Shown: piece by piece, positions 9,191 through 17,174 of the stretch
Layout of the letters: each line of letters opens with the position of its first letter
Position numbering within the stretch: position 1 is the first letter of the stretch
Assembly (NCBI GenBank): GCA_964420165.1
Contig: CAYQSL010000001.1
Coordinates: 1 to 42,656, forward strand
Length of the DNA: 42,656 nucleotides
Reading direction: 5' to 3'
DNA from: an uncultured Gammaproteobacteria bacterium
Lineage (GTDB): Bacteria; Cyanobacteriota; Vampirovibrionia; LMEP-6097
The notes under the pieces: model-generated
What the model saw: only the letters and a program-made list of their open reading frames with translations
Databases searched by the model: none
Told to the model about the DNA's origin: nothing
Position numbers and translations under genes: made by a program

Positions 9191-9248
9191 ATATATTCTA
9201 ACTAAGTTTTGAGATGTTTGCCTAAAAACCCTTATAATTAATTACAAG

Positions 9249-9623
9249 GTGCTTAGAGTTGGCTCATTGATTGCTTTACAAGTTCTATATTTTGGTGGAC
9301 TACTTGCTAGTGCTAATCAATGTCGAGAGTATGGCAATACTATCAATTGTGGTAATAAAGAAATTTATCGAAAAGTTGGTAATAGGATTTTTGGACCGAA
9401 TGGATCTCAATATCTAATTCAAGGCAACCGTATTTCTAAGCTTGGTACTAAAACAACCTATCTGAAAATTGATAATAAGATCTTTCGTAATGATGGAACT
9501 TCTTATACAAGACAAGGAAGTTATATACGTAGTAATAAAGGTGAGCAGTATGTGAAGCAAGGAAGTCAGGTCTCAAGTATTAGTAAGCAAGATCCTATTG
9601 TTGATTTCTTTTTGAATCATTGA
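9249..9623 (+). CDS. Small secreted protein with internal GN(R/K)I(F/S)...G(S/T).Y..QG repeats, unknown function
   Basis: ORF track (GTG start). It has a hydrophobic N-terminus, and the peptide motif is reiterated 3-4 times. Confidence 0.45.
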   Translation: MLRVGSLIALQVLYFGGLLASANQCREYGNTINCGNKEIYRKVGNRIFGPNGSQYLIQGNRISKLGTKTTYLKIDNKIFRNDGTSYTRQGSYIRSNKGEQYVKQGSQVSSISKQDPIVDFFLNH

Positions 9624-9632
9624 AACTATCTT

Positions 9633-9651
9633 TCAGTAATTTATTTTTACC
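9633..9651. repeat. 19-bp direct repeat copy 1 (TCAGTAATTTATTTTTACC)
   Basis: Exact match to 9793-9811. Lies just after the stop of 9249..9623. Confidence 0.8.
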
Positions 9652-9792
9652 TTGTATTGAAGAAAGGAAAACAAAAAAGGCAAAAAATCTCTCTTCTGTA
9701 GAAAATCAATAAAATTTCTGGCGTGAAAAATCAAAAAAAAGCCAAAAAAAGATTATTTTAAAGACATTGATAAATATAGGCTTTTTACCCTA

Positions 9793-9811
9793 TCAGTAAT
9801 TTATTTTTACC
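9793..9811. repeat. 19-bp direct repeat copy 2 (TCAGTAATTTATTTTTACC)
   Basis: Exact match to 9633-9651. Lies just before the STAND-like ORF. The two copies enclose 141 bp of A-rich sequence. Confidence 0.8.
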
Positions 9812-9879
9812 CAGAGTTGTTAAAAGTAGTGACAGAATTAGAAAAAATATTAGTTATTTTAGGAATATACCAACTGATT

Positions 9880-12800
9880 ATGAATGCAAAGAAACTGAAA
9901 AAATTTGAAGATAAAAATTTTTGGCAAAAATACAATAAAGCAATTCTAGCTAACTTCAATGGTCGCTTTAACCCAGATATAGATTTTCATACAACTACAG
10001 ACATACAGATTCAAGATCTTGCTGGTATAGAAAATGCCTCTAAGTTGAATAAAAAAAATTATAAATTAGAGCAAATGATGGAATCTACAAAAGATTTTTA
10101 TTTAAAATTTTTCAAAGAAAAAACAATAGAAGATTTATATTCATCAAATAGTAGAAAAGCACAAATAAAATATTCTAATACCAAGGCTATTGTTGAATCT
10201 CTGTTTAAATTAACGAATCAAATTATCAATCATGATAAAGATTTAGTCGAAAATCTTGAGCTAATTTTAGAACAAATCGATACTTTAGAAAAAAATATAT
10301 TAGAGTTACAAAGAAAATTTTCCGAAAATCAATATGATAGGAAACATATAAGAGAATTCAGCTCAAGTCTAAGTGAGCTTAAATTATTTTCAAACAACCA
10401 ATTATTGAAAAGAAACCAATTTTTTTTGCTAAAAGGCAAAGGAGGAACTGGTAAAACACACTGTTTCTTATCAGTTTTTTGTAAATTAATCAATGAAAAT
10501 TTGCCTAGTATATTTATTACTGGCAATGAATTTGATTTATCATCAACTATAAAGAATTTAAACAAAAATTTAAAAGAACATCAATATAGATCCTTAGAAA
10601 CTTTACTTAAAGATTTTGAAAATGCTATTCCTGAGAATAAAATTAGTTGTATATTTATTGACGCAGTCAATGAAGAGTTTGTAGCTGGTGTATGGAATAA
10701 ACATTTAGTCAATTTTATTAATTTACTTAAACAATTCCCTAAAATCAAACTATTAATTAGTCTTAGGGATGGGTATGAAGCACAAATTACAAATAAATTA
10801 AAAGATCAATTTAAACAAATTGATCATAATGGATTTCTATTAGAGACAGAGAATGTAGTTAGATATTTTTTTGATATTTATAAAATACCTTTACCAGAAG
10901 TTCCTCTTATGGGTACGGAGTTTTCTAATCCCTTATATTTGAAACTTTATTGTGAAACCTATTTCACAAGAGAACAAACAACAGGTTCGCTTACCTTTAC
11001 TTGGTTATTAGAACAATATATAAAAGTTCATGTATGGAATTCTATCTATAAAAAATATTTCAATGGGATTAAGAATCTCTCTGGAAGTAAAATACTTTGG
11101 AATACTATTACGAAGGAAATTGCTGAAAAAATGATTGAAACAAAAAGTAGGTTTGTATCAATAAATTTTTACAATAAAATATTTAAAAGTCTTGATTTGC
11201 CTAACTCTCTAACCTCGGAGGCTCTATTAATAGATTTAATAAATTTCAATATCCTTTCTTTACAGTTTCGTATAAGCAATACAGGCAAAAAAATTCGTTA
11301 TATTACTTTTGCATACGATAATTTAACCAACCATTTACTGGCTAGATATATATTTACTAAGTACAATAAAAAATCAAAATCAAGTAGGCGAAAAAAAGCA
11401 CAATTAAAGATTTTCGGTATCCAAATTGAAAAAAGTATTGGAACATTCGGTCTTTCACTTGCAGAAGCTATAGCAGTCAAATTGGGTGATAGCCGTGATA
11501 AGAAAGAAATTTTTGATTATTGTAAATCAACAGATCAAATTTTATTATGCCAAGCCTTTTTAAATAGCTTGCCACTGAGAGAAAATAATGAAAAATCATT
11601 TGACCAGATTAAAAAAAGTCCCAAAAGGCTTCATAGATTTATAATCAAGCTTTTAAAATTGGATTATTACGATATCAAAGAAAGCTTAGCTAAAAATCTT
11701 TTTTATATTTTACTCAAATATAATCATCCATTAAGTTTTCAAAAATTTTTAAATAATTTTCTACTTGCTAGAAAAATGTATAAAAGAGATTTCTTTTTAC
11801 AATATCTATTTAAAAGTTCTTACAATCAGAATTTATTTAATGGATTATTCAATTGGACAATTAAGTCTATTCCAGGAAGGCAAGATGATGGTAAAGAGCT
11901 TCAGCCCATTGTTGATTTACTTGTATGGATCCAATCTTCACCACAAAGATATTTAAGAGATAAGGCTTCTAAGTTATTAACTTTAATATTCTCCAAGTAT
12001 CCATATTTTGCGGAATATTGTTTTGATACTTACAATAACATTGATGATCTTTATATTCTTGAGAGACTATATGCTTCTTATTACTCAGCATACTTATTAT
12101 CAACAAAAAAAATGGATTTTTATGCCTTACATAACAAGATCCTTGAATTTATTAGGAATCAAGGCTTCCCCGTCCATCTACAAACTACTATTTCAATAAT
12201 CTCATTATTTAAAGAATCATCAATAGATCCTCAATTTATAAACAAATTAATCCAGGATAAATTTTTTACTACCTCAAAAATAGATTTGCAATTTGATAAA
12301 AATTTTATTAATCAATTCATTGAAAAAGAAACTAAAAATAATTCAGAATTTGGATCAATAGTAACATCCTTAAGTGATTTCTCTGGTGACTTTTATATCT
12401 ATGAATTAAGATCTCATCTCGCTGATTGGAAAAATATAAAAAATACATCCCATAAGAAACTAACAAACGAAATTAATGAATTTATACAAGATTTGAATTT
12501 TAATCAAAAAGAATTTCTTGAAAAACACATAGACAATGATCTATATTCAACTATAAAAAAGTTTAATAAATTGGAATCAAATCCGCTTCAGAATTGGTCT
12601 GAAGATCTTCTTGTAAAGATAAAGAATGAAAGTCCAGATTTATTCAATATGTGGCAAAGTCACATTAAACGAACAAAAGAAGATACTGAAGGATTAGAGC
12701 AATTTAAAATTTTCTTTGGAAGCTTATCAATTCATAAACAAAATACATTAACTAAAATTAGCAACAAAATTAATGCATATAAAAAAGCCGAAACCGTTAT

Positions 12801-14076
12801 TTCAACTGAAAATGCAAAATATTGGATGCTACATAAGATTATTAAAATGGGCTGGAATGATAATTTACACAGTGATTATGAATCTAATTGTTCATATACA
12901 GGAAGAGGAAATCATAAAGAAGAAAGAATTGGCAAGAAATATCAATGGATTGCATTAAATAGTCTTATCTTTGAAATTGGGCGACGATATATTTTAAAAG
13001 AAAGATATGGAGAAAATTTTAGGTCTTATGATCATCACTCTTTATTTGAAACTTGGGAAATTAGAGGATTCAAGGATATTGATCTAACATTTAACTTTGT
13101 ACATGAATCTACTTACTGTGAAGCCAAAATAGAACATTGGAAAGAACAAATTAACAAACCAATGCCCTTAGTCTCTAATAATGAATGGCTTAAATCAAAA
13201 GAATTACCAGAATTGAAGGATTTTGTTTTAATCAGGGAAAGTCAAGACCAAGAATGGATATCGCTTTCTGGATATTTCCCAATTGTAGAAAGCAATGTCA
13301 ATATATTTAGTGATGATCAAATAAGAGTCAAAGATTTTATGTATTTGACCCATTCTTGCATTATAGATAGATTAGATTTAGAACAATTTATTGAACTAAG
13401 TAGAGAACGTCATTTTTGGAATAAATGGTTTCCTGATAAAGTAGAATTATCCAGTAGCTTAGATTTAGGAGAGTATTACTATTCGAAATTCAGTCAATCA
13501 AAGCATAAAGGTTTTAATTACCCTGATATAGATACTATTAAAGATGAAAAAATTCCAAGCAGCTTTATTTTTACTACTACAGAAATTTCACAAGATTATA
13601 ATTCATTAGACTGTTCTTTTGATAAATCAATAAATATCCAATTACCAAGCCCTTGGCTTATTGAACAATTGTCTTTAGAACATAAGTTTTTTGATTCTCG
13701 TTTCTATAATTCACAGAATAAATTAGTGACATTTGATCCATTAATTTGGAAGTTTTCTGATTATACTGGTCTTTTAATTGACAGGAATGAGTTGGTGAAA
13801 CTGTTAGATAAAATGGATAAAACTCTAATTTGGATAATTACTGCTGAGAAAAGATTGAAAAACTTAGCACGTATTGATGGAGATTTTCATGGATGCAACC
13901 AAATCAGTATATTGGGATGGTTAGATGATCATTTTAATTTTAATCAAGAAGTAAAATTTGATTACCTTCAGCCACGCATAGAAAAGCGTCCTCGAATAAA
14001 AGGATTGAAGAGTGAAAGCAAAAAATCCTCAAGTTTTAAATTTATTATTAGGAGCAGGGTTTTCAAAGTCACTTAG
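9880..14076 (+). CDS. Large NACHT/STAND-like P-loop NTPase (~1,398 aa) with long unrecognised C-terminal region
   Basis: The ORF track gives 9817 (TTG). I prefer the in-frame ATG at 9880 (MNAKKLKKF). Motifs are Walker A GKGGTGKT (10435-10458), Walker B-like CIFIDAVNEE (10648-10677), then KLLISLRD. More than 1,000 aa follow with no motif I recognise. Confidence 0.7.
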   Translation: MNAKKLKKFEDKNFWQKYNKAILANFNGRFNPDIDFHTTTDIQIQDLAGIENASKLNKKNYKLEQMMESTKDFYLKFFKEKTIEDLYSSNSRKAQIKYSNTKAIVESLFKLTNQIINHDKDLVENLELILEQIDTLEKNILELQRKFSENQYDRKHIREFSSSLSELKLFSNNQLLKRNQFFLLKGKGGTGKTHCFLSVFCKLINENLPSIFITGNEFDLSSTIKNLNKNLKEHQYRSLETLLKDFENAIPENKISCIFIDAVNEEFVAGVWNKHLVNFINLLKQFPKIKLLISLRDGYEAQITNKLKDQFKQIDHNGFLLETENVVRYFFDIYKIPLPEVPLMGTEFSNPLYLKLYCETYFTREQTTGSLTFTWLLEQYIKVHVWNSIYKKYFNGIKNLSGSKILWNTITKEIAEKMIETKSRFVSINFYNKIFKSLDLPNSLTSEALLIDLINFNILSLQFRISNTGKKIRYITFAYDNLTNHLLARYIFTKYNKKSKSSRRKKAQLKIFGIQIEKSIGTFGLSLAEAIAVKLGDSRDKKEIFDYCKSTDQILLCQAFLNSLPLRENNEKSFDQIKKSPKRLHRFIIKLLKLDYYDIKESLAKNLFYILLKYNHPLSFQKFLNNFLLARKMYKRDFFLQYLFKSSYNQNLFNGLFNWTIKSIPGRQDDGKELQPIVDLLVWIQSSPQRYLRDKASKLLTLIFSKYPYFAEYCFDTYNNIDDLYILERLYASYYSAYLLSTKKMDFYALHNKILEFIRNQGFPVHLQTTISIISLFKESSIDPQFINKLIQDKFFTTSKIDLQFDKNFINQFIEKETKNNSEFGSIVTSLSDFSGDFYIYELRSHLADWKNIKNTSHKKLTNEINEFIQDLNFNQKEFLEKHIDNDLYSTIKKFNKLESNPLQNWSEDLLVKIKNESPDLFNMWQSHIKRTKEDTEGLEQFKIFFGSLSIHKQNTLTKISNKINAYKKAETVISTENAKYWMLHKIIKMGWNDNLHSDYESNCSYTGRGNHKEERIGKKYQWIALNSLIFEIGRRYILKERYGENFRSYDHHSLFETWEIRGFKDIDLTFNFVHESTYCEAKIEHWKEQINKPMPLVSNNEWLKSKELPELKDFVLIRESQDQEWISLSGYFPIVESNVNIFSDDQIRVKDFMYLTHSCIIDRLDLEQFIELSRERHFWNKWFPDKVELSSSLDLGEYYYSKFSQSKHKGFNYPDIDTIKDEKIPSSFIFTTTEISQDYNSLDCSFDKSINIQLPSPWLIEQLSLEHKFFDSRFYNSQNKLVTFDPLIWKFSDYTGLLIDRNELVKLLDKMDKTLIWIITAEKRLKNLARIDGDFHGCNQISILGWLDDHFNFNQEVKFDYLQPRIEKRPRIKGLKSESKKSSSFKFIIRSRVFKVT

Positions 14077-15271
14077 CAATTATCCCGCTGGATCAGAAAT
14101 TTCTAATAAAATTTATGATTATTTACTTACAGAAAGAATAGAAAATAAAGTAGCTTTCTCACTACTTGATCAAGTTAGAGAAAGTACTATTGAATATTCT
14201 ACAAAGGATTGTGAGATTTTTAAGAATCCAGAATTTAACTATCAGAATTTTTTATTTAAACCACTATCTTTCATTGAATCAGAGCTTGAAAAACATGATT
14301 ATAATGAGAAAGAAAAAAAAGACTTTTTGGATTTTCATTGTAATCAAATAAAAAAGACTTTTAATTATGAAAACATTTCTAGTGAATTAATAAATTTTCT
14401 TTATACTTCTTATCGCTGTAAAAATAAATTTAAAGAATTAAATGAAATTAGTGTCTTATCCAAAAAAATATTTAAATATATTTTCTCATTACTTTTTAAC
14501 GAACTTGGATCTACAAAAGAAGTTAATGATAGAAAAAAGAATAGACAATTAAGATTTCAAATGATGATTAAAGATCTTCTTGAAAAAGGATACGAGATTA
14601 ATATTTTTGATTTAAATCATGATTGTTTGTTTGAAAATCTATGCTTGCAAGATAACTACTTGAAAGGATATTACAATGACTTTTTTTCAGAACCATCGCC
14701 TGAAACATTTATTCCAGAGAGCTTAAAACATACTAATACCAGAGTATTGAATAGTAATTCAAGAAATTTAATTAACCATTATAAACTTCATGGTTCATTC
14801 TCCATCTTTAATTTAAATACAAAAAGTAGTTATATGGCATATAAAATAAAAAATATCAAAAAAGAGGAATTCTATATTAAAGAAATTTATCGAAGTCTTG
14901 AACAAACTCATCTTCCTTATGTTCCTTTAAACACAATTTTGTTCAACAGTTTATTTAAGACAAGTGATATTTATTCATCTCCCTATTTGTCTTTTTGTTT
15001 TAATCAATTTTCGAAAGTCTTAGATTCTCTTTTGGCGATTGGTTATAGCAAAAATGATATTCATGTTAACAGCACAATATTATGGAACTATAAAGTTCAA
15101 TTAAAGGAATTCGAATTTGAGAATAAGAATATACTTTTATTAGGTACACCAGAAAATCATAAAAGTCTTCTTAAATGTTTCCAGAATCAAAGTAAAGGCA
15201 ATTATATAACTGATACCTGTTACTTTGAAATTTTTTTAGCACGATATGTTAGTGACTATTTTAATATCTGA
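14012..15271 (+). CDS. SIR2-like (SIR2_2/ThsA-type) putative NADase
   Basis: GTG start with AAAGGA 7 nt upstream. Motifs are LLLGAGFS (14042-14065), IFDLNHD (Asn 14615-14617) and YKLHGS (His 14789-14791). It overlaps the preceding ORF by 65 nt in the +1 frame. Confidence 0.7.
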   Translation: MKAKNPQVLNLLLGAGFSKSLSNYPAGSEISNKIYDYLLTERIENKVAFSLLDQVRESTIEYSTKDCEIFKNPEFNYQNFLFKPLSFIESELEKHDYNEKEKKDFLDFHCNQIKKTFNYENISSELINFLYTSYRCKNKFKELNEISVLSKKIFKYIFSLLFNELGSTKEVNDRKKNRQLRFQMMIKDLLEKGYEINIFDLNHDCLFENLCLQDNYLKGYYNDFFSEPSPETFIPESLKHTNTRVLNSNSRNLINHYKLHGSFSIFNLNTKSSYMAYKIKNIKKEEFYIKEIYRSLEQTHLPYVPLNTILFNSLFKTSDIYSSPYLSFCFNQFSKVLDSLLAIGYSKNDIHVNSTILWNYKVQLKEFEFENKNILLLGTPENHKSLLKCFQNQSKGNYITDTCYFEIFLARYVSDYFNI

Positions 15272-16212
15272 AGAATTTTAGCCGCTTCTTCAACCAACAA
15301 TAAATAATTTTCAATATTTTCACTAAGTATCTTTGTTTGTCGATGAATATAATTATTTCTATCTTTAATCAAATTCTTAATGGTTTTTATTTTAGTAGCA
15401 TATTGTGTATGATTTAGAAGATTAGCAGATTTGATGATACTGACTAAAACTACATTTTTTTTGTATAAATTACCAGTTTTTTTCAAAATCTTTTTTTTCC
15501 ATTTTTCATTTATAGTAATATTCTTCTTGTCTATTGAATCCATAATTTTATAAGTTATTGCTTCAAGCGCAATAACAAGATTCGTTAAACATTCAAATTT
15601 ATGTCCTTCTTGATTTAATCTATATGCACTCATAAGAAAAATATCTTCTATTTCCAAAGAATTCTTTAAGAGCAAACTGCGAATAATGTTTTTTTCATCA
15701 TCGGAACGCTCTGGCAGTAAGGTAGACAAACAACCATTGCTACCCAAATTAAAATGAACTACGCCACGAACTTTTGTATTTTCATTACTGACTGTAACTC
15801 TTGCAGTAGGTAATGCTCCACGAGTAGTCAACTGTCGAATTGCATATCTCTTTGTAACAAAACGATATACGTCTAAAAATTTATTACAAGAATTCTTTAT
15901 TACTTCCCAATTATTATCTAAGATTTCATCTTCTTGAATATCTGGTGAAATTGCAATAGAAAGATATACTTTTGTAAATCGAAATGCAGCTTCAGAGTCC
16001 GTAGCTATTTCGCAATTTTCACCCCTTCCAAATCTATGATCTTCAGGTTGTCTAATATCTTCAAAAGTAATGACAATTTTAGAAATAGAACCATCATCGT
16101 TTAAATAATCAAAATCAAATTTTGTATCAGATGATAGATGTAAGCAACAATCCAATGTAAAAGAAATTGTTGCATAGTCTTTGCCTAATATACTTTTAAG
16201 ATCTTCATCCAC
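15256..16212 (-). CDS. Hypothetical protein with C-terminal HEPN-like helical domain (Rx4H)
   Basis: ORF track. The C-terminal ~130 aa are helical and contain KDRNNYIHRQ (R-x4-H encoded at 15343-15360). It converges on, and overlaps by 16 nt, the SIR2-like ORF. Confidence 0.5.
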   Translation of the reverse strand: MDEDLKSILGKDYATISFTLDCCLHLSSDTKFDFDYLNDDGSISKIVITFEDIRQPEDHRFGRGENCEIATDSEAAFRFTKVYLSIAISPDIQEDEILDNNWEVIKNSCNKFLDVYRFVTKRYAIRQLTTRGALPTARVTVSNENTKVRGVVHFNLGSNGCLSTLLPERSDDEKNIIRSLLLKNSLEIEDIFLMSAYRLNQEGHKFECLTNLVIALEAITYKIMDSIDKKNITINEKWKKKILKKTGNLYKKNVVLVSIIKSANLLNHTQYATKIKTIKNLIKDRNNYIHRQTKILSENIENYLLLVEEAAKILQILK

Positions 16213-16322: not shown

Positions 16323-17174
16323 ATGGAAAAAATATATTTAATAATACCTAAATCCGAAGTTGAAAATAAATTAAAAGAACGGATCGCAAAAGGGAAAGAA
16401 CTTATAAACTCATTTACACAAGTTAATAATGAAAAAAATTTCGAAACCTTTGAATCAAAAGTAGCAAATTGGAGAGACTATAATTGTGAATATTTAACTC
16501 AAGCTTTTAGTAATGATGATTTATCTTTTGAATCACATGCCAATATAGGAAGTTATTCTCGTTATGATGCACCACTGTATATTAGACAGCAAGAATTACT
16601 GGATAGAATGAATGGCTATATTAGTAAACTCGAATCAATTTTAGAACGAGTTGAAATTATCCCTGAACATGAAAATATTAAAACTAATAAGATAGATAGT
16701 CATTCTACAATTAGTAAAAATATTTTTGTTGTTCATGGACACGATAGGATTATTCTTAATAAAATAAAATCTTTTTTAGAGTTAATAAATCATCCTCCGA
16801 TTATTTTGGACGAACAGGTTAATAGTAGTAAAACAATCATAGAGAAAATTGAATCTTACTCGAATGTTGGCTATGCAATTGTCATAATGAGCCCAGATGA
16901 TTTAGGTATTGCAAAAAAAGATCTCAATCTTATTCCTGAAGATCAACCTGAATCTAGACTTAAAGCGCTGGAGAATAGAGCAAGGCAAAACGTTGTACTA
17001 GAATTAGGATTTTTTATGGGCAAATTAGGCCGAGAGAATATAGCAATTCTTTACCCAGAAAAATTAGAAATAATGACAGATATACATGGTGTTTTATATA
17101 TTCCTATTACAGAAGACAATAGCTGGCAAGTAAAATTAAAATCAGAGATTGACCATGCTTTTAAGAAACTTTAG
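16323..17174 (+). CDS. TIR-like domain protein of the CAP12/PycTIR type with N-terminal helical domain
   Basis: The C-terminal half reads IFVVHGHD...VGYAIVIMSPDDLG...ARQNVVLELGFFMGKLGRENIAILY. This is the signature I associate with the 'predicted nucleotide-binding protein containing TIR-like domain' family. A TATAAT lies at 16273-16278. Confidence 0.6.
   Translation: MEKIYLIIPKSEVENKLKERIAKGKELINSFTQVNNEKNFETFESKVANWRDYNCEYLTQAFSNDDLSFESHANIGSYSRYDAPLYIRQQELLDRMNGYISKLESILERVEIIPEHENIKTNKIDSHSTISKNIFVVHGHDRIILNKIKSFLELINHPPIILDEQVNSSKTIIEKIESYSNVGYAIVIMSPDDLGIAKKDLNLIPEDQPESRLKALENRARQNVVLELGFFMGKLGRENIAILYPEKLEIMTDIHGVLYIPITEDNSWQVKLKSEIDHAFKKL

Follow-up and report, generated by a model that had tools for sequence, protein, structure and literature searches.

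A divergent Avs2 sensor lacking an N-terminal effector and an overlapping SIR2 gene: a candidate split defence system from an uncultured bacterium

Described Avs and SIR2 systems and the locus

The gene pair reported here is closest to two described groups of anti-phage systems, the Avs2 (AVAST type 2) sensors and the SIR2-HerA complexes. It occupies positions 9880-15271 of contig CAYQSL010000001.1 (assembly GCA_964420165.1, an uncultured Gammaproteobacteria bacterium; GTDB lineage Cyanobacteriota, Vampirovibrionia, LMEP-6097), of which the whole analysed stretch of 42,656 nucleotides (nt) is called the window, and it consists of a gene for a divergent Avs2 without its N-terminal effector domain and, overlapping the 3' end of that gene, a gene for a predicted NADase of the SIR2 fold. 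Members of the Avs2 family sense the phage large terminase, and EcAvs2 forms a flat tetramer once the ATPase domain of the terminase is bound (PMC13601566). The effectors of known Avs proteins sit N-terminally, not C-terminally (PMC13601566; bioRxiv 10.64898/2026.08.25.746987), and effector mutants lose activity (PMC11564622). Separately encoded partners are also known: KpAvs2 depends on Avap2, which is bound to the helical bundle between effector and NTPase (PMC11564622), and Avs2-trypsin switches on an MBL nuclease that has a gene of its own (bioRxiv 10.64898/2026.08.25.746987). On its own the SIR2 of SIR2-HerA is inactive, auto-inhibited by a small domain, and it becomes active when it assembles with the adjacent P-loop ATPase (PMC11472057).

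With EcAvs2 (PDB 9o4e), KpAvs2 with Avap1/Avap2 and Vibrio cholerae Avs2-trypsin with its MBL protein, the first gene of the pair has full-length homology, comprising the helical extension, the STAND NTPase (GKxGxGK[ST], IDAxNE), the TPR region and the C-terminal sensor, and multi-gene operons with separately encoded partners are documented for this family. Unlike those proteins, it has no N-terminal effector, is followed by a SIR2 gene rather than by Avap1/2 or MBL, and is only about 25% identical to known Avs2. The second gene resembles the SIR2 of SIR2-HerA (Nezha), which gives the best fold matches and has the same size, the same arrangement of a large Rossmann and a small helical domain and the same N-x-D, H and IGY..D.HIN motifs, and in both cases the gene of a P-loop ATPase adjoins that of SIR2. 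Here, however, the ATPase is an upstream STAND protein, the SIR2 sequences are only 14-18% identical, and no HerA gene was found among the 30 distinct window open reading frames (ORFs) scanned against PADLOC and, for most of them, Pfam.

Other systems share single aspects of this combination. Avs5 (AVAST type 5) likewise joins a STAND sensor to a SIR2 NADase effector, with NAD+ depletion presumed, but its SIR2 is fused N-terminally in one polypeptide to a different Avs sensor family, whereas the locus has a separate 3' gene and an Avs2-type sensor. Thoeris ThsA, DSR1/DSR2 and the SIR2-APAZ protein of SPARSA have the SIR2 fold and the NADase chemistry that is predicted here; their SLOG or Macro, large C-terminal sensor or APAZ domains are absent from the window SIR2 protein, and they are weaker fold matches. 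Both components therefore come from known families. In the Avs2, Avs5, Avs-survey and SIR2-HerA literature that was compared, no effector-less Avs2 with a separate 3' SIR2 is described, the founding AVAST papers (Gao et al. 2020, 2022) lying outside that comparison.

The two genes and their overlap

The features of the first gene, all on the plus strand, are as follows.

9880-14076, plus strand: divergent Avs2 (AVAST type 2) STAND NTPase without an N-terminal effector domain, 1398 amino acids (aa) counted from ATG 9880, matched by PADLOC, NCBIfam and PDB 9o4e
TTG 9817 and GTG 9829, plus strand: alternative upstream starts of the same gene; the NCBI call has 1415 aa
9880-10404, plus strand: N-terminal helical extension, residues 1 to about 175, equivalent to the bundle between effector and NTPase in other Avs2, with no effector ahead of it
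10435-10458, plus strand: Walker A, GKGGTGKT (residues 186-193, K192), aligned with GKAGIGKS of EcAvs2
10648-10677, plus strand: Walker B region, CIFIDAVNEE, with IFIDAVNE aligned to VFIDAINE of EcAvs2
10750-10770, plus strand: LLISLRD
12802-13908, plus strand: C-terminal sensor domain, residues 975-1343 (third phmmer domain, against 9o4e 1097-1464, E = 1.3e-14)
13972-14076, plus strand: tail beyond the end of homology, about 34 aa, the last 21 codons of which run through the start of the SIR2 gene; profile and homologues end at about residue 1364

The 1398-codon frame is free of stops, which number 66-191 in each of the five remaining frames of this AT-rich DNA, and upstream the ORF can be extended in frame as far as 9817. 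The PADLOC Avs2 model PDLC02164 matches its product with E = 6e-154, residues 8-1364 lying on profile positions 170-1498 of 1504, and EcAvs2 itself (9o4e) is matched with E = 5e-44, residues 132-737 aligning with 286-883 and residues 975-1343 with 1097-1464, so that helical extension, NTPase, TPR region and C-terminal sensor are all spanned. The NCBIfam Avs2 equivalog NF041813 scores 457 bits, under its curated cutoff of 1000; the protein is a divergent member of the Avs2 family. Its plasmid homologues found with tblastn carry Avs2 annotation; relatives from a set of 5.8 billion proteins are only about 25% identical, and a second search with the NTPase core as sole query gave two matches, no Avs2 relative exceeding 25% identity in either search. 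The original prediction, made from the letters of the DNA, had proposed a STAND NTPase core in this ORF, which the Avs2 profile and the EcAvs2 alignments bear out. It had also recognised no motif in the more than 1,000 aa that follow and had named no described family for the arrangement. This part did not hold for the NTPase, which is an Avs2, that stretch being the TPR region and C-terminal sensor alignable to 9o4e.

What sets this Avs2 apart is the missing effector and not its family. The match begins at profile position 170, corresponding to about residue 160 of EcAvs2, which means that an N-terminal effector domain of some 150-170 aa is absent, and residues 1-170 had no Pfam match even at E<=1. 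Among five distant Avs2 relatives, four have 150-230 additional N-terminal residues, including one (P0018) with a trypsin-like N-terminus (SAAHC motif), the gene 3' of which may be an MBL partner; the N-terminus of the fifth (P0020) is as short as that of the window protein. The ORF at 9249-9623 was considered as a detached effector and rejected: it has no family matches, resembles a small secreted protein and is kept beside different cargo at a related locus (L018, see below).

For the second gene, and for the stretch in which the two coding sequences overlap, the following features were located.

14000-14004, plus strand: AAGGA, a Shine-Dalgarno-like motif 7 nt 5' of the SIR2 GTG and within the Avs2 coding sequence
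14012-15271, plus strand: stand-alone SIR2_2-family protein of SIR2-HerA structural type, predicted NADase, 419 aa, GTG start (AlphaFold2 model, Foldseek and family alignment)
14012-14076, plus strand: overlap of the two coding sequences, 65 nt, holding a run of six A at 14020-14025 and the GAG loop
14051-14065, plus strand: GAGFS, the GAG NAD-binding loop with G14 and G16
14609-14623, plus strand: DLNHD, in which N202 and D204 correspond to N163 and D165, catalytic in Paenibacillus SIR2 (PMC11472057)
14783-14797, plus strand: KLHGS, with H260 equivalent to the catalytic H212 of Paenibacillus SIR2 (PMC11472057)
15038-15070, plus strand: IGYSKNDIHVN, the conserved IGY..D.H.N motif of this SIR2 type

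For both ORFs, all motifs quoted in the original prediction (LLISLRD included), the 65-nt overlap and the A run, the recomputed coordinates agree with those first given.

Directly, the SIR2 protein is matched poorly by family models, Pfam (PF13289 included) giving no match at E<=1 and the PADLOC SIR2 model a weak one (E = 9e-7). Twelve of the 15 sequences in its family alignment do match Pfam SIR2_2 (PF13289), and GAGFS, DLNHD, NHYKLHG and IGY..D.H.N are invariant in 14 close homologues. When the family profile was run against 1.84 billion representative proteins, it found 263 relatives, nearly all of 350-430 aa, and in an alignment of 94 relatives N202, D204, G261 and Y345 are invariant and G14, G16 and H260 conserved in at least 90%. 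An AlphaFold2 model from this 94-sequence alignment reached a predicted local distance difference test (pLDDT) value of 86.5 and a predicted template-modelling (pTM) score of 0.87, superseding a poor earlier model from 15 sequences (pLDDT 64.7). In a Foldseek search of the PDB, ranks 1-18 all went to SIR2 subunits from anti-phage complexes of the SIR2-HerA kind (E = 8e-12 to 1e-6, TM 0.46-0.58), with FAM118B, DSR2 (E = 1.5e-3), the SPARSA SIR2 (2e-3), archaeal Sir2 and ThsA (rank 34, E = 0.29) far behind; when PDB sequences were compared with the family profile, a SIR2-HerA SIR2 (8yhx) was again the sole significant match. According to the model, SIR2 core and helical 'small domain' make up the whole 419 aa, with no sensor domain. 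Fold, fold matches and conservation across the 94 relatives bear out the SIR2 assignment that had been read from short motifs, and show a SIR2-fold protein with an intact NAD pocket (GAG loop, N202, D204 and H260), a predicted NADase. The Avs2 and SIR2 ORFs are more than chance frames, given that the former is free of stops and matches its profile with E = 6e-154 and the latter has a fold match of E = 8e-12, and we consider the identities of both genes secure.

Relative to the Avs2 gene, SIR2 is read in the +1 frame, and GTG 14012 is the sole start codon with which the conserved GAG loop can be taken in. Removal of a single A from the run at 14020-14025 gives one uninterrupted ORF of 1796 aa, a fusion that the original prediction had entertained. 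Such a single STAND-SIR2 protein of about 1,800 aa would be hidden by a sequencing error in the A run or produced by programmed +1 frameshifting or transcriptional slippage. This we regard as barely credible. All 14 close and about 250 distant homologues are free-standing proteins of 350-430 aa, with N-termini aligning with GTG 14012, and there is no STAND fusion of the SIR2 clade among the 263 matches in the 1.84 billion representatives; SIR2 has its own start codon and ribosome-binding site, the shift required would be +1, a run of six A is short for slippage, and a C-terminal effector would run counter to the N-terminal position in known Avs proteins. The homologues, the lack of clade fusions and the +1 shift speak against the fusion proposal, and on the sequence comparisons the two-gene layout is real, not a frameshift artefact.

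NCBI calls the SIR2 gene (P0001, 314 aa) only from residue 106 onwards, which drops the conserved N-terminal strand and the GAG NAD-binding loop (14012-14326), presumably in order to avoid the overlap with the Avs2 gene. Even if the two genes are independent, the NAD-binding loop left out of the public call is a useful correction to the annotation.

Relation between the sensor and the SIR2 gene

Several kinds of observation argue for a coupling of the two genes. They are complementary, the one encoding an Avs2 sensor without an effector and its neighbour an effector-type enzyme without a sensor domain. They are linked, sharing a strand and the 65-nt overlap, with the SIR2 ribosome-binding site lying within the Avs2 gene and no terminator-like site between 12604 and 16400, hence none between the two genes, and both have a lower GC content than anything else in the island. 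Published cases fit too, namely the activation of SIR2 by its ATPase in SIR2-HerA, the need of KpAvs2 for Avap2 and the MBL nuclease of Avs2-trypsin. Finally, a SIR2 gene behind a P-loop ATPase gene recurs in another branch of the SIR2 clade, in which it is situated directly 3' of an AAA_14/DUF4143 ATPase gene with a 1-nt overlap. The reading we prefer, with about an even chance, is that the pair is a split Avs2 system, in which a terminase-triggered oligomer activates the separately encoded SIR2. In such a system the two genes would be co-transcribed, and the Avs2 oligomer, possibly via its N-terminal helical bundle, would recruit or re-arrange a SIR2 protein that is otherwise auto-inhibited, whereupon hydrolysis of NAD+ by SIR2 would abort the infection. 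The bundle bound by Avap2 in KpAvs2 corresponds to the N-terminus of the window Avs2. That a sensor NTPase activates a separate SIR2 protein, as the original prediction had it, is in our view plausible, with a single locus to rest on.

Several observations weigh against this coupling, beginning with the genomic contexts of relatives. The original prediction had named synteny of the two genes in relatives as a touchstone; as far as the sparse data go they are not syntenic, for no second Avs2 and SIR2 pair was found among nine distinct SIR2-clade contexts and seven Avs2-like contexts. None of the distant Avs2 relatives in those seven contexts, the short P0020 included, has a SIR2 neighbour, and no STAND protein occurs at any of the SIR2 loci from the scans of genome contigs (four loci) and metagenome contigs (one locus); among viral contigs, plasmids and phages no SIR2 relatives were found. 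The closest SIR2 relative (L001, 42% identical) is located 3' of a PD-(D/E)xK protein and 5' of a DUF4238 gene, those of L018 and L022 precede unrelated proteins of 337 and 292 aa, respectively, and those of L009, L017 and L021 stand alone. In the cyanobacteria-like lineage the upstream AAA_14/DUF4143 gene is frameshifted in L010 (2715-3822) and cut to its last 23 codons in L009 (3123-3191) and L017 (1638-1706), with an intact SIR2 ORF in each case, so that this SIR2 type can persist beside a decayed or deleted ATPase, without a partner. Within the window, no shared adaptor-like (EAD-like) sequence was detected between the Avs2 termini and SIR2 (z = -0.6 and -0.4), and the position of SIR2 3' of the sensor is the wrong order for a simple fission of an N-terminal SIR2-STAND fusion, the clade being also devoid of STAND fusions, as noted above. 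The long overlap and the 34-aa non-homologous Avs2 tail have the look of a junction made by recent recombination, not of an operon with a long history. Since both proteins have only very distant relatives, the nearest being 25% identical for Avs2 and 42% for SIR2, and the sampling of contexts is sparse, we take the missing recurrence as weak negative evidence and not as a refutation.

The same contexts bear on the view that two independent defence genes happen to lie side by side in a recombination hot spot, a strong contender to which we assign somewhat under an even chance. The SIR2 protein would then be an autonomous single-gene NADase or have another partner, the Avs2 would be a recently 5'-truncated relic or would work without an enzymatic effector, for instance by sequestering the terminase, and the 65-nt overlap would be no more than a scar, left when an inserted cassette did away with the original stop codon of Avs2. 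SIR2 relatives that are solo or have unrelated neighbours, and that outlive the loss of the upstream ATPase, are consistent with this, as are the lack of homology in the Avs2 tail past residue 1364 and an island dense with unrelated systems. The locus L018 adds to it: it has the left flank in common with the window (8308-9619, 76% nt identity) and wholly different cargo, with a SIR2 relative (28% identical) and no STAND protein. Against independence it counts that an effector-less Avs2 has no demonstrated defence route, effector mutants being inactive in the work cited (PMC11564622), that a SIR2-only protein requires some trigger, and that overlapping genes on the same strand are normally co-expressed; P0020, moreover, shows that Avs2-like proteins with a short N-terminus are no unique accident. 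Were the genes uncoupled, the locus would amount to a divergent Avs2 and an unclassified SIR2_2 gene adjacent to each other in an ordinary defence hot spot.

A wider form of the coupled reading, which we offer tentatively and hold more probably wrong than right, is that the SIR2 gene is a portable effector cassette serving varied upstream partners, namely Avs2 here, an AAA_14/DUF4143 ATPase or a PD-(D/E)xK nuclease elsewhere and HerA in more distant relatives, and that the effector-less Avs2 terminase sensor activates it in the window. It would mean that oligomeric P-loop ATPases of unrelated families share one activation route for this SIR2 type.

To our knowledge, all characterised Avs proteins carry the effector on the N-terminus of the sensor, and their activation is explained by N-terminal domains being brought together in the oligomer. 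If the pair is indeed a split Avs2 system, STAND sensors can signal to free effectors, the separately studied Avs and SIR2-HerA-type NADase families are linked, and the pair offers a compact system for asking how ATPase oligomers release the auto-inhibition of SIR2.

At the L001 locus (7253-12443) two SIR2-like paralogues are present, one of 425 aa (plus strand) between the PD-(D/E)xK protein of 251 aa and the DUF4238 gene, the other of 360 aa (minus strand) beside a 374-aa gene. The locus adjoins restriction-modification genes (an N6_N4_Mtase methylase and ResIII/RE_endonuc) and a UvrD helicase.

The surrounding defence island

The pair lies in a low-GC block, the GC content of the Avs2 and SIR2 genes (0.271 and 0.248) being the lowest in the island, with 0.32-0.40 in the backbone. 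OEP and HlyD genes indicate a low-GC Gram-negative bacterium as the source. The neighbouring genes are the following.

15256-16212, minus strand: orphan ORF of 318 aa, convergent with SIR2, 3' ends overlapping by 16 nt; GC 0.284, as low as the Avs2-SIR2 block
16323-17174, plus strand: TIR-domain protein (Pfam CAP12-PCTIR_TIR, 1.4e-34; PADLOC candidate single-gene system PDC-S35, 2.9e-60), adjoining the integrase
17181-18308, minus strand: tyrosine integrase, beside the TIR gene
18684-22412, plus strand: Upx-like protein of 1242 aa, with an N-terminal SEC-C zinc motif (Pfam, 1.3e-8) and a match of its C-terminal approximately 460 aa to PADLOC Upx (E = 5.5e-26, profile 774-1242 of 1271)
24670-32215, minus strand: type I restriction-modification operon, with hsdR (1007 aa), hsdS (394 aa) and hsdM (820 aa)
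28874-29746: KilA-N-domain / PDC-S22 gene, inserted between hsdS and hsdM
32265-33704: PDC-S02 Mrr-type nuclease, after the restriction-modification operon
35527-36738: SoFic-like Fic protein, after PDC-S02

The location in a defence island, which the original prediction had inferred from the AT content and the neighbours, is upheld by this inventory, in which the PDC-S35 TIR gene, the integrase and the Upx-like gene accompany the low-GC block and the type I restriction-modification operon, PDC-S22, PDC-S02 and SoFic follow further on. The TIR gene, 1 kb downstream of SIR2, raises the question of a Thoeris-like system with SIR2 as its effector. Its proximity and its clear TIR match are what speaks for such a system, which we nevertheless think very improbable: SLOG and Macro sensor domains are absent from the SIR2 protein, ThsA appears only at rank 34 of the fold search, the TIR protein belongs to the effector (CAP12/Pycsar) type, with its match to a candidate single-gene system, the convergent 318-aa gene stands between the two, and no TIR gene was found near any SIR2 relative examined. 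The 318-aa ORF had no match in Pfam or PADLOC, nor does it resemble the genes that flank SIR2 relatives. Recent work has shown Upx to sense the terminase as well, as a second type of sensor that is not a STAND protein, so that the island may contain two such sensors at a distance of 4.6 kb.

On the left, a three-gene module at 8308-9623 of the window corresponds to 3016-4332 of L018, which belongs to a related metagenome-assembled genome (GCA_964517685.1). It encodes two paralogous small proteins (103 and 100 aa, minus strand) with signal-peptide-like N-termini and a 124-aa protein, kept at 66-79% aa identity. In L018 the module is followed by the SIR2 relative with its 337-aa gene, an AAA_15/AAA_21 ATPase and a SMODS gene; from the shared flank and the different cargo we conclude that the site is a cassette or defence hot spot.

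A weak candidate internal promoter was noted at 13884-13913. Two stretches of AT-rich DNA, 9806-9836 and 17050-17080, form a weak repeat (77% identical) that was considered as the att sites of the island, with the integrase lying outside. Just 5' of the Avs2 gene, TCAGTAATTTATTTTTACC is present in two exact copies (9633-9651 and 9793-9811) 160 nt apart, two matches being reached in 2 of 100 shuffles. The first copy lies in the flank common with L018, which has one copy with three mismatches (4976-4994), and the second is located where the island-specific DNA starts; the repeat may mark a site of recombination or insertion, or may be a regulatory element that was duplicated.

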